From the IMG/VR virus record IMGVR_UViG_3300025073_000448: a stretch of 64,000 nucleotides of DNA. One strand, written 5' to 3'. A program made the translations under genes and the position numbers. Numbering within the stretch: the stretch's first letter is position 1; the number at the start of each line of letters is the position of its first letter. This DNA comes from a virus. Shown here in pieces: positions 2,816 to 40,891 of this stretch. The notes under the pieces are model-generated. The model saw only the letters and a list, made by a program, of their open reading frames with translations. It ran no database searches and had not been told where the DNA came from.

Positions 2816-3661
2816 TCAAGACCCTCCTCTCTCCTCCCGCAACATACTTATTTCTTCCAGTGCTTGCATGTCAGATAACCCATTTTTAATCTTTGTATAA
2901 AATATGTCATGGCCGACATTAAATTCTTTCATCCAATCAGACAATATTTTTACTTTCCCGTTCCACGCTATAAATCTATTTTTGCGAGTATTTTTAGCTT
3001 GCATTGCGAGTGGTATCCACTCACAATTATTTGCATCATAGTTACCATTTACATTCTTTCTTTCAAGCGAATATCCACTTGGACATAAACCCATATCACT
3101 TAAAAATTGTTTAAAATTGTTAATCCATTCATCACATATAGTTATTCCACGTCCACCATAGCATTCATATCTATCAGCATTTTTATTAAGGCATCTTTTC
3201 TTCATATCTGCCCATGCATCATATTCTCTTGAATGATTTCTTTGTCTTGCATGTCCATGAATTACCTTGTTTTCCCACGTTTCACTTATCAAGCATCCGC
3301 AGCTTCTTGTATTCCCGAATAACCTGCCATATTCTACTGCCACCATATTTCCACAATCGCATCGACATTCCCATAATATCTTTCCGCTTCTATCTTTTCT
3401 GTTTGATTTACATAGCACAGTTAGCTTTCCGGTTTTCATTCCTGTAATATCATTTCCTGCTCTACGTTTATATTGTTTACACCCACATGATTTGGTGTTT
3501 CCTGTTTTTAAGGCATTCCCCTTCCATGTACCAATTAATCCGCACTCACATTGACACTCCCACATTATTTCATTCTTTTTGCCTCGCTTGTCACTTCTTT
3601 TCAGAACTAATATGTAACCAAATTTCTTTCCTGTTAAGTCAATGTAATTTCTTGTTTTCAT
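2816..3661 (-). CDS. HNH-type homing-endonuclease-like protein with two DLTGxKFG...WxCxCxCG...SCGC repeats
   Basis: Repeats plus YGGRGITICDEW and SLERKNVNGNYDANNCEW; AT-rich relative to flanks; start MKTRNY at 3661. Confidence 0.85.
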   Translation of the reverse strand: MKTRNYIDLTGKKFGYILVLKRSDKRGKKNEIMWECQCECGLIGTWKGNALKTGNTKSCGCKQYKRRAGNDITGMKTGKLTVLCKSNRKDRSGKILWECRCDCGNMVAVEYGRLFGNTRSCGCLISETWENKVIHGHARQRNHSREYDAWADMKKRCLNKNADRYECYGGRGITICDEWINNFKQFLSDMGLCPSGYSLERKNVNGNYDANNCEWIPLAMQAKNTRKNRFIAWNGKVKILSDWMKEFNVGHDIFYTKIKNGLSDMQALEEISMLREERGGS

Positions 3662-3785
3662 TGACGCGCCTCGCAGAAAATAAAAAAGCGCAAAGAGCTG
3701 CGAGGGATTCAACATCCCCTCTTGGCCTCACGACCAAAAGACTCTTTGCGCTAACTGGATATCGATATTTACTAATTACAGCCAT
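3639..3785 (-). CDS. Putative 48-aa leader uORF overlapping the HNH start
   Basis: GGAGG-8nt-ATG; MAVISKYRYPVSAKSLLVVRPRGDVESLAALCAFLFSARRVNENKKLH*; spans RNA element 1. Confidence 0.45.
   Translation of the reverse strand: MAVISKYRYPVSAKSLLVVRPRGDVESLAALCAFLFSARRVNENKKLH
3687..3752 (-). ncRNA. Three-way-junction RNA element 1
   Basis: 11-bp outer stem AGCGCAAAGAG/CTCTTTGCGCT, GUGA-tetraloop hairpin, GGGAU/AUCCC hairpin, followed by a U-tract. Confidence 0.65.
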
Positions 3786-3829: not shown

Positions 3830-4879
3830 CTAAAACGGAGACTTCTCACCTGCTCCGCTTCCAGTCCCACCAGCAGCCCCACCCTTCTTGGCTTGGCCCG
3901 CGCCGGAATCCTTGGCGCCCGCGCTGGCCCCACCAGCAGGCTTCATGAACTCAGGCTCGCCGGGCCTGCTTTCTGCGCCGCCTACATCCCCGCCCGCTCC
4001 GCCATATCCTCCACCCGAGCCTCCTTCCCCGCCACTCCCACCCCCGGCCGCAGCAGCTTCCGCCGCCTCTTCCGCCTCAAACGTTGTCTGAACGCTGGCA
4101 TCCTTTAGGGACTCGACCGTCGGGATAATGATCTCGTTCAGCAGCACCTCGTCAACCGGCTTCGGCATGGTGAACTTTGCGCGGTAATGCTTCTGAGGCT
4201 CGAGTCGCTTCTCTAGGGATATCTCGGTCTGAAACATGAAGAAGGGCTTGCGGCGGAGCATGACGCTCGAGATGAAACCCTTGGTGGGTTTGATGCTTAC
4301 GCCGTGGAGCGTCGTCCAGAAGGGGACCCCATCATCGATTCCAATGCAGAGAAGATTATAAAGAGTTCCGCAGGGAGGCTTGGTCTTTCCGTCCTCGTCC
4401 CATGCTCCGAACTGGCATACTTGCTTGGGGCGATTCCCTGGCCCCATGACTGCACAAACCTTGGAAGGAGGGAATGGGTGGCGTGAATCAGGCTCCCAGA
4501 ACGTATATGATCGGCAAAGCAAGTCCTCTCCGTCTCCGGATGCCAGCCATTCGGAGTTTTTTCCCGTCTCTGCGATGAGATCTTGCATGTATGCATTTAC
4601 TTCCGTGGAGTTCTTGGTTCGATCCTGCTGACTCCATAGAGCTCGGCCTTTGTCGGCCTTCACGATCACTACATTCAGCGTTTCCACCTCTTCCCCGGTA
4701 AGATTGCAGAGAAAGTGACCCTCGGTTCCGGTTTTACTCGTCGGCTGCACCACCTTATAGCGCGGGATCACGAGATCGGACGCATCAAACGATTCCCACC
4801 CCGTATAGCCTTGAAGGCTTTCAGGGATTACTACAGCGCCTGCGGGGGAGTGGATAGCAAGATCCTTCGATTCACTCAT
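3830..4879 (-). CDS. Putative ssDNA-binding/annealing protein
   Basis: DLVIPRYKVVQ-type N-terminus, long Gly/Ala-rich tail ending ...SPF like an SSB tip, located in the recombination block. Confidence 0.5.
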   Translation of the reverse strand: MSESKDLAIHSPAGAVVIPESLQGYTGWESFDASDLVIPRYKVVQPTSKTGTEGHFLCNLTGEEVETLNVVIVKADKGRALWSQQDRTKNSTEVNAYMQDLIAETGKNSEWLASGDGEDLLCRSYTFWEPDSRHPFPPSKVCAVMGPGNRPKQVCQFGAWDEDGKTKPPCGTLYNLLCIGIDDGVPFWTTLHGVSIKPTKGFISSVMLRRKPFFMFQTEISLEKRLEPQKHYRAKFTMPKPVDEVLLNEIIIPTVESLKDASVQTTFEAEEAAEAAAAGGGSGGEGGSGGGYGGAGGDVGGAESRPGEPEFMKPAGGASAGAKDSGAGQAKKGGAAGGTGSGAGEKSPF

Positions 4880-4883
4880 GACA

Positions 4884-5384
4884 TTATTCCTTTTCTATTG
4901 GAAAGTTGAGACATGCAAATTCACCAAAGAACTCAACTGCTTTTGCGTCGTATGCTTTGGCGGCTTCAATTTCTTGGTGAGGCTGAAATGACCCAAGGTG
5001 ATATCTTTTTTTGTTAGTTTTTATTTGAGCATACCATCTGTTGTGATTTTTATCCCATGTAACTCCTTTGTATTGTGATATCCCGGTAGTTGTTCTAACG
5101 TTCTGCTGATTACATTGATGCGTTGCCTTCCTAAGATTGAATCTCTGATTGTTCAAGCCATTCCCGTCCCAATGATCCACCTCAATGTCTTCATTCGTCA
5201 ACAATAGTAATTCTCTGTGCATATATATTTTTGGATATCTGACCCCCTTAACAACCGGGGCATTTCGGACAGCATACCACTTATTCTTTGCCGGGTTTGC
5301 ATACCACCGCCACTGCATCAACCACTCCCAATCCTCATCATCAACCAGCGCCACCTTGCCCTGAGTCAAAGGTATTTCCTTCAT
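4884..5384 (-). CDS. HNH endonuclease with C-terminal AP2 domain
   Basis: MKEIPLTQGKVALVDDED, EVDHWDGNGLNNQRFNLR, YKGVTWDK...WYAQI...AAKAYD...FGEFACLNF. Confidence 0.92.
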   Translation of the reverse strand: MKEIPLTQGKVALVDDEDWEWLMQWRWYANPAKNKWYAVRNAPVVKGVRYPKIYMHRELLLLTNEDIEVDHWDGNGLNNQRFNLRKATHQCNQQNVRTTTGISQYKGVTWDKNHNRWYAQIKTNKKRYHLGSFQPHQEIEAAKAYDAKAVEFFGEFACLNFPIEKE

Positions 5385-5388
5385 GACA

Positions 5389-5523
5389 TCATCCCCCAAA
5401 AAAGAAATCGCGCGGATCATGGGTCACCGACTGTCGCTCATCAAGCAAGGAAAATGAGCGAGGCCCAGGAGTCTTTCTCTCCAGTCCACGATACGCGCGA
5501 TAGGGTATTCTATTCTTCTTCAT
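5389..5523 (-). CDS. Putative 44-aa leader uORF upstream of the HNH-AP2 gene
   Basis: AAGCAAGGAA RBS then ATG; MKKNRIPYRAYRGLERKTPGPRSFSLLDERQSVTHDPRDFFFGG*; stop lies 4 nt before the HNH ATG. Confidence 0.5.
   Translation of the reverse strand: MKKNRIPYRAYRGLERKTPGPRSFSLLDERQSVTHDPRDFFFGG
5407..5501 (-). ncRNA. Three-way-junction RNA element 2
   Basis: 16-bp outer stem (1 mismatch, 1 GU), GGAG-AGAAAGA-CUCC hairpin, CGCUCAU/AUGAGCG hairpin with a pyrimidine-rich loop, then a U-tract. Confidence 0.65.
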
Positions 5524-5572
5524 GGGATTCCTTGCTTCTTTGCCGGTGTCGAGTCGTGACTTCGACGGAATC

Positions 5573-5600
5573 ACGTTATCACTCACAGGAATGATGTCAA
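5573..5600 (-). promoter_or_regulatory. Sigma70-like promoter for the uORF/HNH-AP2 unit
   Basis: TTGACA-16nt-TAACGT with an extended TG. Confidence 0.55.
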
Positions 5601-5629
5601 TGAATTTGTTACACTTTGCTTGTGTTCGT

Positions 5630-6349
5630 TCAATCCACGATATAGGACTCAACCCTCCTGAAAAGCCCGGTCAGCAGATCGACATCCCACTTATTGTAAA
5701 GAAGGATATCCTCGTACATTCCCGCGAGGTACGCCGGGTAAACCTTGCTCCCATCCCACCCAGTCGGTTTTGCTCCCACCCCGAAGTAGGCGCACCAGTA
5801 TTCCATTTTCTTCAGGATAGGCTTATTGGAAAAAGGGGTTTTCATCCCAAGGGAAAGCTCGACATCAACGTGCGCCTTGTTTTCAAGTCGAGTGTCCACG
5901 AGCTTGAGATACATGGAATGCTTTATTGCGTGGACATCCAGCATCATGGATCTGCGGTGCAGCACTTGCGCGTCGAATGATTTTCCATTGAACGATACCA
6001 ATGTTATCCCCAACTGCATAGCCTCGCGCATCCAGTCCCATGCCGCAATCAGGAGCTTTTTTTCCTCTTCTTCGTTCGTGGCGAAAAGCTCCAGGTACTC
6101 CTCGCTCTTCGAATCATACCCCACGAAAGAGCAGGGCCGGCAGAACTCGGGCTTGACCCCCAGGTCCTTCTTGGACTTCTCCCTGAACTTGTCCCGCTCG
6201 GCGTTGATCTTTTTCTGTGCGGCCTCGGTCCCCCAATTTGCAGGAATGGCCACCTCTGCCGGGTCGAATATGGGGAGGCATTCCTCGGGGATGTTGTCCG
6301 CGGGGATCGTTTCCGCGTCAAAACTGCGAATGTGCATGAAGTCTGACAT
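5630..6349 (-). CDS. PolB-related DEDD 3'-5' exonuclease
   Basis: FDAET (ExoI), LVSFNGKSFD (ExoII), YNKWDV (ExoIII); start MSDFMH at 6349. Confidence 0.85.
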   Translation of the reverse strand: MSDFMHIRSFDAETIPADNIPEECLPIFDPAEVAIPANWGTEAAQKKINAERDKFREKSKKDLGVKPEFCRPCSFVGYDSKSEEYLELFATNEEEEKKLLIAAWDWMREAMQLGITLVSFNGKSFDAQVLHRRSMMLDVHAIKHSMYLKLVDTRLENKAHVDVELSLGMKTPFSNKPILKKMEYWCAYFGVGAKPTGWDGSKVYPAYLAGMYEDILLYNKWDVDLLTGLFRRVESYIVD

Positions 6350-14312: not shown

Positions 14313-14381
14313 CGAATCGTCGTCACGATTTCGCACATCATGGCGGTTTTGATACACCTCAAAAAAACCAGAGAGGATTCC

Positions 14382-14522
14382 ATGAAAAATACGAGCGCAA
14401 GGCAAGGATTCAGGAGCAAGACCTGGAGCATGGCACACATCGCAACCTCTCTGGTATTCTGTGCCGAGCGGCGACCCTTGCCTTGCGCTTCTATGTTCCA
14501 TGGAGGAGCGCAAAAACCATGA
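14382..14522 (+). CDS. Putative 46-aa leader uORF, ATGA-coupled to the next gene
   Basis: GAGAGGA RBS; MKNTSARQGFRSKTWSMAHIATSLVFCAERRPLPCASMFHGGAQKP*; spans RNA element 3. Confidence 0.5.
   Translation: MKNTSARQGFRSKTWSMAHIATSLVFCAERRPLPCASMFHGGAQKP
14394..14489 (+). ncRNA. Three-way-junction RNA element 3
   Basis: Perfect 14-bp outer stem AGCGCAAGGCAAGG/CCTTGCCTTGCGCT, UUCAGG-AGCAAGA-CCUGGA hairpin, GGCACA/UGUGCC hairpin with a 22-nt loop. Confidence 0.7.
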
Positions 14523-15136
14523 ATCAGACAGTAAATCAAGGGCACTTCCAACAAATCACAGACCTCACCTTCGAATCTTCGAAGTGCAGGTTCATGATTC
14601 ACCCAAACACTAACGACCTCTATGTTTCTTTGTTCGATCTACTCAGGCTACTCGGTGCTGCGGACGGCGCAAAGCATGTGATTGGCTCATTGGAAAGAGT
14701 TCAAGACGGGGAAAGCGATGGAATCCCAACACTTTTATCTAAGCTATCAATCCAGAGATCACAAAACATGACCGGGATTCAAAGATTCTGGTTTGAAGTG
14801 CTCATGCGCGGAAGCTTGTTGATCGAAGATGCTAGTTGGATTGGAGTGGTGCCAACACGCAAGCTGTATCGAGAATACCTGGAATTTTGCAAGAAAATTG
14901 GAGAAAAATTCCCCGTAGCCAACAACATTTTCACGAAGCACATCAAGAGTCTGACATTCCATGGAAGCGTAAAACGTATTCGAAAAATATTCCATTATGT
15001 CGGGCATCATCTTCCAACATCTGAGTGGTGTTTGCGCTTCGATGATCTCGATGCATGTCGAAAAGCCTTCAATGAAGCCATTGGACGCAACATAATGTGG
15101 AGAATTACCTCCTCTGGCAGAAAAGAGGATCTGTAG
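14519..15136 (+). CDS. Fusion of a Bro-N-like N-terminus with a paralog of the primase C-terminal domain
   Basis: LYVSLFDLLRLLG (Bro-N-like, weak); C-terminal ~113 aa about half identical to the primase C-terminus (MTGIQ.FW.EVLMRG...EWCL.F.DL..CR..F...I...IMW). Confidence 0.75.
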   Translation: MNQTVNQGHFQQITDLTFESSKCRFMIHPNTNDLYVSLFDLLRLLGAADGAKHVIGSLERVQDGESDGIPTLLSKLSIQRSQNMTGIQRFWFEVLMRGSLLIEDASWIGVVPTRKLYREYLEFCKKIGEKFPVANNIFTKHIKSLTFHGSVKRIRKIFHYVGHHLPTSEWCLRFDDLDACRKAFNEAIGRNIMWRITSSGRKEDL

Positions 15137-40416: not shown

Positions 40417-40458
40417 GCAAAGGTTGGCCTTGCGCTGATTGCGTACTGATAATACAAT

Positions 40459-40534
40459 GATCGCGCGGTCTAGGGAGAGATCCCCGAAGAGCCCATACTC
40501 CCGCATGGGCCTGGCCGCGCGATCTACTTTTTTT
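40459..40534 (+). ncRNA. Three-way-junction RNA element 4 (apparently stand-alone)
   Basis: 12-bp outer stem GATCGCGCGGTC/GGCCGCGCGATC, GGGA-GAGA-UCCC hairpin, GCCCAU-ACUCCCGC-AUGGGC hairpin, T7 tract. Confidence 0.65.
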
Positions 40535-40891
40535 CATATCTTCACTTCCATCCACGGGAGCCGTGGCAACACGTCGGTGGCGACTATCGGCGCTGTCTAG
40601 GCTCCAAATAATCATCAACCATCACATTACAATCAGCACCATCATTCACATCAACCACCACACACCTCAACGCATTGCCTTGAGCGGAACACCGTGGAGG
40701 AAGTGGCTTAGATCCATCCCTTCTCGGCTCCGCCAGGCACAACCAGAGAATACCTCGAAGGGAGGGAGTGGGACAGGCTCGCGGTTCCGGGCTCGCCATG
40801 TTGGTTGTGGATCATCCACGCCACGGTGAACACCCTTAGCGCGCGGCCTTGCTCCCCGCCCCACCCTTCAAGGCTCTCAAAAGGAGAAAGT

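Follow-up and report, generated by a model that had tools for sequence, protein, structure and literature searches.

Natural compensatory changes indicate that a hairpin loop and the Shine-Dalgarno region of a short leader ORF, located upstream of a predicted homing endonuclease gene of the HNH-AP2 type, form a genuine RNA control element by pairing with each other. Both lie on the minus strand of a 64,000-nt stretch of viral DNA (hereafter the window), the loop within a three-way-junction RNA at 5407-5501 that is supported by folding and covariation. The best reading, to which we assign a probability of roughly 60%, is that the two stretches pair in cis as a pseudoknot that would block the leader ORF, and that translation of the endonuclease would be coupled to that of the leader ORF. 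The evidence comes from only three distinct copies of the element (the window and contigs L007 and L012) and two of a paralogous leader, all from one group of groundwater phages.

The whole cassette (4880-5625, minus strand) consists of a promoter, the leader and the HNH-AP2 gene. Its upstream neighbour is a DNA_pol_B_exo2-type exonuclease gene ending at 5630, and its downstream neighbour a Pam3-gp34-like gene starting at 4879; in this part of the window all genes are carried by the minus strand. The promoter and the leader occupy a 245-nt gap that separates the exonuclease stop codon from the HNH start. The HNH_3-AP2 endonuclease gene itself (4884-5384, 166 aa) matches the HNH endonuclease family phrog_99 (E = 2e-33), and its Pfam scores are slightly below threshold for both AP2 (32.7 bits, cut-off 33.3) and HNH_3 (18.9 bits, cut-off 24.8). 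The DH...N...N motif is intact in the translation, HNH-AP2 homologs carry PF00847 and PF13392, and purifying selection on the gene is evident. Among the 3703 homologs of the protein, only two clusters exceed 58% identity. From the family motif and the presence and absence of the gene in related phages, the cassette gene is classed as a free-standing, predicted HNH-AP2 homing endonuclease.

The original prediction was of a self-contained cassette, made of promoter, leader ORF, RNA and HNH-AP2 gene, and suggested following its presence and absence in related phages. This comparison bears the prediction out. The cassette is missing as a block from a close relative, G001 (the nearest virus record), and from contig L122, which match the window up to 5626 and again from 4854. 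Only ~127 unrelated nt lie between the two matching segments, so promoter, leader and HNH gene are absent as one unit. The window type, L007 and L012 have the cassette, each time between these two genes. L007, whose HNH protein is 86% identical to that of the window, ends 177 nt upstream of the HNH start. L012 provides the full context: homology with the window begins at 5616, just past the exonuclease stop codon, and continues at ~79% nucleotide identity over leader, HNH gene and gp34-like gene, whereas the adjoining exonuclease shares only 31% protein identity with that of the window. Two independent observations, the G001/L122 boundary and the start of L012 homology, thus define the left edge of the cassette. 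The presence/absence pattern agrees with a cassette that would be mobile as a unit. In the phage collection, no DNA match to the cassette was found.

The HNH ORF is flanked by a short direct repeat of 8 nt, ATGTCATG, at 5382-5389 and 4877-4884 (minus strand), which spans the starts of both the HNH gene and its downstream neighbour, start codons included. At the empty site of G001 (L001:1557-1612), an ATG is found 18 codons upstream, in frame with the gp34-like gene. The first ~8 codons of the G001 gp34-like gene differ from those of the window; thus the sequence beside the insertion point has diverged.

Conserved boxes support the view that the cassette has a promoter of its own, probably weak and of the sigma-70 type. 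The -35 box TTGACA (5595-5600) is separated by 16 nt from TAACGT (5578-5573), and a TG one base upstream of the latter makes an extended -10 of the form TG-n-TAACGT (TGATAACGT, 5573-5581). Transcription is predicted to start near 5566, giving a leader of ~190 nt. The -35 box and the extended -10 are identical in L012, while 7 spacer positions, in a 10-nt stretch, differ between the two sequences; the promoter originally proposed is thus present, and its boxes are kept across a diverged spacer. The -10 box is poor, as it matches only 3/6 positions, and it is for this reason that the site was not among the promoters listed in a scan of the window. In the paralogous leader and its homolog in L025, TTGCAT is followed after 16 nt by TATCAT or TAAAAT, and the spacer is unrelated in sequence. 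A 38-nt block at 5544-5581 (minus strand), running from the extended -10 to the first ~25 transcribed bases, is fully identical between the window and L012, as against only 83% identity for the HNH coding sequence. It holds short inverted repeats (GTCGA...TCGAC and AGTC..GACT) and could be an operator or a 5' RNA hairpin.

The junction RNA is composed of three helices. P1 joins 5501-5486 to 5422-5407, P2 joins 5484-5479 to 5471-5466 and is closed by a 7-nt loop (5478-5472), and P3 joins 5461-5453 to 5442-5434; the junction strand J3/1 occupies 5433-5423. The fold of 5501-5407 has a z-score of -3.1. Covariation is seen at 3/16 pairs of P1, which is 97.9% paired over the three copies, at 2/6 pairs of P2 and at 5/9 pairs of P3. 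When P2, P3 and the pseudoknot were taken together, none of 500 shuffles reached the observed covariation. Counts for these three helices were made on a trimmed alignment (A7), because realignment to the covariance model built from the three copies (R1) left a 3-nt gap in P3 of L012. P1-P3 contain ~11 G-U cells, which would be A-C mismatches on the other strand and thus indicate an RNA of the same sense as the HNH gene. The reverse strand scored only 9-15 bits with R1.

Unpaired bases are conserved as well, in both paralog groups, namely the P2 loop and the motif CGGYGAC in J3/1. The P2 loop reads A-GNRA-GA in four of the five leaders and CUUG in L007. A hammerhead-like core was considered and rejected, the GAUGAG box in P3 being conserved neither in L007 nor in L012. 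Directly 3' of P1 lies a U-rich tract (5398-5406) that is invariant in the three copies, and U-rich runs are also found 3' of P1 in the paralog. The base of P1 (AUCGCGCG with CGCGCGAU) is GC-rich and followed by UUCUUUUUU, with an A-rich stretch 5' of P1. The U-rich tract can either base-pair with the A-rich sequence that follows the leader AUG or serve as a terminator tail. P1 base, A-rich and U-rich tracts together have the anatomy of an intrinsic terminator, with ribosome-dependent read-through as a possible consequence; the 'loop' of such a terminator would be a 63-nt branched structure, outside the rules of the terminator scan applied here.

Junctions followed by a U-run occur four times in the window. 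One of them, at 40440-40545 (plus strand, z = -4.3), is preceded by a promoter-like GATAAT and has a U7 run and no ORF behind it; it shares the terminal AUCGCGCG / CGCGCGAU of its outer stem with the cassette leader, is not matched by R1 and may be a stand-alone small RNA. Another, at 3670-3765 (minus strand, z = -4.5), which R1 does not match either, lies upstream of a second HNH endonuclease gene (2816-3715, minus strand, 299 aa, phrog_374, E = 5e-72). At the position of this second gene, contigs L013-L016 have a 48-aa and a 281-aa gene.

The P3 loop, UUCCUUGCUU (5443-5452), is an anti-Shine-Dalgarno sequence and would form the 3' strand of the pseudoknot. Its 5' strand is the Shine-Dalgarno region of the leader ORF, AAGCAAGGAA (SD1, 5537-5528), located 4 nt before the leader ATG (5523-5521). 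The original prediction had described the loop as a perfect 10-nt complement of this ribosome-binding site, and both coordinates and sequence are confirmed: UUCCUUGCUU is the whole 10-nt loop of a 9-bp hairpin (5461-5434) and the exact complement of SD1. The probability of the loop being unpaired is 0.99 in the nested ensemble. As the complementarity ends exactly at the borders of the loop, P3 and the pseudoknot can coexist. Taken in one sequence alone, the match is suggestive only, since a perfect 10-nt inverted repeat arises in 88 of 3000 dinucleotide shuffles (2.9%) of the 245-nt leader and ~18 such repeats are expected per window (perfect 10-nt inverted repeats within 200 nt: 38 observed, 17.8 +/- 5 expected). 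No second perfect target of the loop was found in the window, and the sites with one mismatch are generic SD-like sequences.

The comparison of homologous cassettes is more telling. Complementarity, whose loss there would have spoken against the pairing, is kept in both. In L012, SD1 reads AGUUGAGGAA and the loop UUCCUCAACU; each side carries four changes relative to the window, all of them compensatory, and all 10 pairs are retained, as in the window copy (10/10). L007 (AACCAAGGAA with UGCCUUGGUU) retains 9/10 pairs, with one double change and one mismatch. Over alignment A7, 4/10 pairs of the pseudoknot helix are changed on both sides and 96.7% of its cells are paired. When helix partners are slid against each other (P2, P3 and pseudoknot), the paired cells drop to 33-51%. 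The calculated energies of the loop/SD1 duplexes range from -11.5 to -16.8 kcal/mol for cognate and from -3.6 to -7.9 kcal/mol for non-cognate combinations. The changes are not evenly spread over the contact. SD1 positions 2-5 covary with the loop, while the AGGAA core is invariant. The invariant half thus consists of the SD core and a UUCCU that mimics the ribosomal anti-SD, and the covarying half corresponds to the nucleotides 5' of the SD, on which ribosome binding places no constraint. Across five leaders, the longest perfect complement of the loop at any position in the leader is always 8-10 nt long and ends 4-6 nt before the leader AUG.

The leader ORF (5389-5523, 44 codons) has an open frame and an unconserved peptide. 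Its stop codon, TGA (5391-5389), is separated from the HNH AUG by 4 nt. When the window is compared with L007, differences at codon positions 1/2/3 number 12/12/11 in the leader ORF and 19/11/45 in the HNH gene, and the leader ORF has 3 synonymous and 20 non-synonymous codons. This flat pattern argues that the RNA, not the peptide, is under selection. The leader ORF gave no match to Pfam or PHROG and, on its substitution pattern and the lack of family matches, was rejected as a protein gene. The frame is open in all five leaders (three copies of the cassette and two paralog leaders): L007 keeps the 44 codons, and the deletions of 9 nt and 3 nt in L012 are in frame. In the window and L007, a +1 shift at a U6-7 / G4-5 run separates the leader frame from the HNH frame. 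L012 has lost 1 nt of the U/G run, so that leader ORF and HNH gene form a single frame, called as a 208-aa protein (L012:2187-2813, P0122). Both leaders of the paralog group have the sequence AUGA, in which the start of the next gene and the stop of the leader ORF overlap. The open frame and the stop/start arrangement would fit a translated frame that hands ribosomes over to the downstream gene.

The start region of the HNH gene, read from the sequence as GGGGGA, 7 nt and AUG (5382-5397), may be held in the same fold. The unpaired probability of the HNH SD is 0.29-0.41 in the three copies. Its pairing partners and register differ between copies, and its bases are invariant and show no covariation. 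The original prediction had also paired UCAUUUUCC (5457-5449) with the HNH ribosome-binding site GGGGGAUGA (5397-5389), which in the window gives 9 bp with 3 G-U. This second pairing did not hold up in the comparison: two pairs are lost in L007 and two in L012, with no compensatory change. The -35 region (5587-5601) is in turn complementary to the HNH SD/AUG (5383-5397), over 12 bp in the window and over 9 bp with a bulge in L012. This pairing appears in the minimum-energy folds of the read-through RNA of both, again with no compensatory changes. Such folds could hide the HNH start on read-through transcripts from the exonuclease operon.

A paralogous leader was recognized by R1 in the same window, at 14334-14514 (plus strand, 37 bits), and a homolog of it in L025 (L025:1320-1503, 53 bits). 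In the window it precedes a 205-aa non-nuclease gene (14519-15136), and its boxes are TTGCAT, 16 nt and TATCAT. G001, searched for both leaders, has neither, and it is also without the 205-aa gene. The paralog leaders have 10-nt loop/SD1 matches of their own (ACCAGAGAGG with CCUCUCUGGU and ACCCGAGGUG with CACCUCGGGU), each of which ends 5 nt before the leader AUG. The leaders share one order of parts: SD1, leader AUG, A-rich stretch, P1, P2 with its A-GNRA-GA loop, P3, J3/1 with CGGYGAC, the 3' strand of P1, a U-rich run and the next start. The leader peptides of the paralogs are unrelated.

As judged from these searches, the leader family comes so far only from one group of groundwater phages. 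Rfam was searched with the whole window at the gathering threshold, with 4800-5750 at E <= 10 and with L012 and L007 at E <= 5, and gave only noise-level matches. A scan of the viral collection with a leader pattern gave none. In the metagenome, the pattern had a single match (L018), which on inspection was random high-GC coding sequence and was judged unrelated. Scans with family signatures gave 6 viral and 92 genome-contig matches; 80 of these loci were scorable, and R1 rejected all those scored. A relaxed viral pattern gave at least 119 matches; 80 loci were scored with R1 and all were rejected. HNH relatives at 54-58% identity (L009-L011) adjoin their upstream gene and have no leader. The HNH-AP2 gene of L008, at 54% protein identity, has an unrelated leader (L008:1020-1170, z = -4.6), which is made of TTGACA, 16 nt, TATACT, a long branched stem, a U6 run and an SD. 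This suggests that leaders combining a promoter, a structure and a U-run may recur before endonucleases of this HNH-AP2 family.

Loop and SD1 are complementary within one transcript, and a cis pseudoknot is for this reason simpler than an action in trans. In the reading we favour, the anti-SD of the P3 loop would pair with SD1 and its 5' flank, and loading of the 30S subunit on the folded leader would be blocked. The HNH SD would lie in the base of the same fold. The nuclease would then be made mainly when a ribosome enters the leader ORF, most plausibly co-transcriptionally, before P3 exists; this ribosome would melt the fold and terminate beside the HNH start, which would result in translational coupling. 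The GC-rich base of P1 and the A-rich and U-rich tracts may in addition stop transcription that is not followed by a ribosome. The net effect would be a built-in throttle on a potentially harmful nuclease; autorepression, as originally proposed, is conjecture. Two features of the geometry speak against this scheme. A 10-nt loop with all its bases paired is strained, so that either the helix is limited to perhaps ~6-8 pairs or P3 has to open at its top. Transcription also reaches SD1 ~75 nt ahead of the loop; a cis lock can thus not stop the first ribosome from loading.

The same complementarity might instead serve an antisense RNA of the c4 type acting in trans, which we hold to be unlikely. 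The junction RNA, once freed by processing or because transcription terminates at the U-tract, would block SD1 on other transcripts, whether of the same phage or of another phage that co-infects the cell and carries this cassette, and the variable half of the loop would set specificity. Antisense recognition typically involves complementarity that is limited to a loop, the duplex energies of cognate and non-cognate combinations lie far apart, and the unit of promoter, junction and U7 that has no ORF at 40459-40535 suggests that such RNAs may stand alone in this phage. However, target and loop reside on the same molecule, where pairing in cis should outcompete pairing in trans; the window offers no second perfect target, and Rfam C4 does not match. 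A further possibility, unlikely in our judgement, is a regulated switch, in which the junction would bind a protein (HNH-AP2 itself or a phage or host factor) or a small ligand that stabilizes or opens the pseudoknot, so that expression would respond to a signal and not be constitutively throttled. Riboswitches commonly use an SD-sequestering pseudoknot as their expression platform. The bases conserved outside helices in both paralog groups (P2 loop and CGGYGAC) would suit such a switch, and I-TevI, according to a reference cited in PMC3014915, represses its own promoter. Riboswitches are recognized by a conserved pocket and a wide phylogenetic spread, whereas this leader has a very narrow distribution, the viral, metagenome and genome pattern and signature scans having yielded no further copies among the loci scored or inspected. 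Moreover, nothing points to a particular ligand or protein, the genes downstream of the two paralogs are unrelated to each other, and the conserved junction bases could be purely architectural.

It is quite improbable that the junction is chiefly a branched intrinsic terminator insulating the cassette from the upstream operon, with the loop/SD1 pairing only preventing translation of terminated, stop-less leaders. The A-rich tract, GC-rich P1 base and U-rich tail would suit this role, as would the four junction-plus-U-run elements of the window; the leader stop codon lies downstream of the U-tract, and a terminated RNA would thus be a non-stop message. But a strong terminator would also cut off the gp34-like gene, which directly follows the exonuclease gene in G001, and the U-runs of the paralogs are weak. 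Finally, the RNA pairing might be incidental, either because the leader ORF encodes a functional small protein or because the inverted repeat represents paired protein-binding sites on the DNA. We consider this very improbable, even though the leader frame is open over 87 codons in the window and inverted DNA sites for one protein would co-vary too. The lack of codon-position bias, with 3 synonymous against 20 non-synonymous codons, the unrelated peptides of the paralogs and the absence of Pfam or PHROG matches argue against a protein. The G-U cells of P1-P3, the low score of the reverse strand with R1 and the exact coincidence of the repeat with a hairpin loop argue against DNA sites.

The cis pseudoknot with leader coupling thus remains our preferred reading. 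More tentatively, and with a good deal of doubt, it might be extended to a translation-sensing gate formed by a junction within a leader ORF and serving as a portable module of accessory ('moron') genes. A ribosome would have only a short time to load on SD1, until transcription reaches the anti-SD loop. Once loaded, it would melt the branched terminator and pass to the downstream gene; otherwise the RNA would lock and terminate. The variable half of the loop would make each lock orthogonal, and a resident cassette could silence an incoming copy in trans, a c4-like immunity between competing cassettes.

The element is, in the logic of its predicted control, akin to several known systems and a member of none. 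In the c4 system, exposed bases block ribosome binding at a short upstream ORF that the downstream gene requires for its expression; c4 RNA is processed by RNase P and acts in trans. Like c4 of phages P1 and P7, the junction is a small structured RNA in the same operon as its target, with exposed bases complementary to a leader-ORF ribosome site and covarying complementary blocks that set specificity; the coupling would be the counterpart here of the dependence on the upstream ORF. It differs in that the target is upstream of the RNA, the RNA lies inside the ORF it would control, and the downstream gene is a nuclease and not an antirepressor. The Rfam C4 family (RF01695) was not matched at the gathering threshold in the window, at E <= 10 in 4800-5750 or at E <= 5 in L012 and L007. 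The P1 c4 RNA blocks the icd-ant operon, located downstream in the same operon, as PMC8198154 cites from Citron and Schuster (1990). The int-alpA RNA motif (RF02996) is likewise a folded leader in phage or mobile DNA with a loop complementary to a nearby ribosome site, but its architecture differs and it does not match at E <= 10 over 4800-5750; searches for int-alpA, HEARO and other catalogued HNH-associated RNAs in Rfam gave only noise-level matches to unrelated families.

Leader ORFs also govern the replication of plasmids. In the repY-repZ system of IncI-alpha/IncB plasmids and in CopA-tap-repA of plasmid R1, replication control is coupled to a leader peptide: ribosomes translating the leader ORF unfold a structure that masks the start further downstream. 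In repZ a pseudoknot activates translation and leaves the SD free. In our reading, too, leader-ORF translation would open a hidden start, and a loop pairs with a distant stretch beside a ribosome site. Unlike in repZ, the pairing covers the SD core of the leader ORF and should therefore repress, and unlike in plasmid replication control there is no separate antisense gene. Among phage homing endonucleases, structures that sequester the translation start are a documented control of I-TevI, mobE and segB (PMC3014915). As in these T-even genes and T4 gene e, an RNA structure may here bury the ribosome site of the endonuclease and limit its expression, and the promoter may fall in the 5' arm of a long-range helix, here that of the -35 region with the HNH SD/AUG, which shows no covariation. 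The T-even structures are simple hairpins over the gene's own SD, whereas here the contact that covaries is a loop/SD pseudoknot on a separate leader ORF, which itself spans a three-way junction, and the endonuclease appears to be coupled to this ORF.

A homing endonuclease has to be expressed enough to spread and not so much as to harm its carrier. One cassette here combines a promoter, a leader ORF, a three-way junction that is possibly terminator-like and a loop mimicking the anti-SD, in an element that is uncatalogued in Rfam. The same design stands before an unrelated DNA-binding gene in the same phage, and it therefore looks like a reusable module and not a one-off. Its covarying, cognate-specific loop/SD1 pairs are material for the study of SD-masking pseudoknots, of leader coupling and of their interplay with termination, and could serve as orthogonal translational locks.
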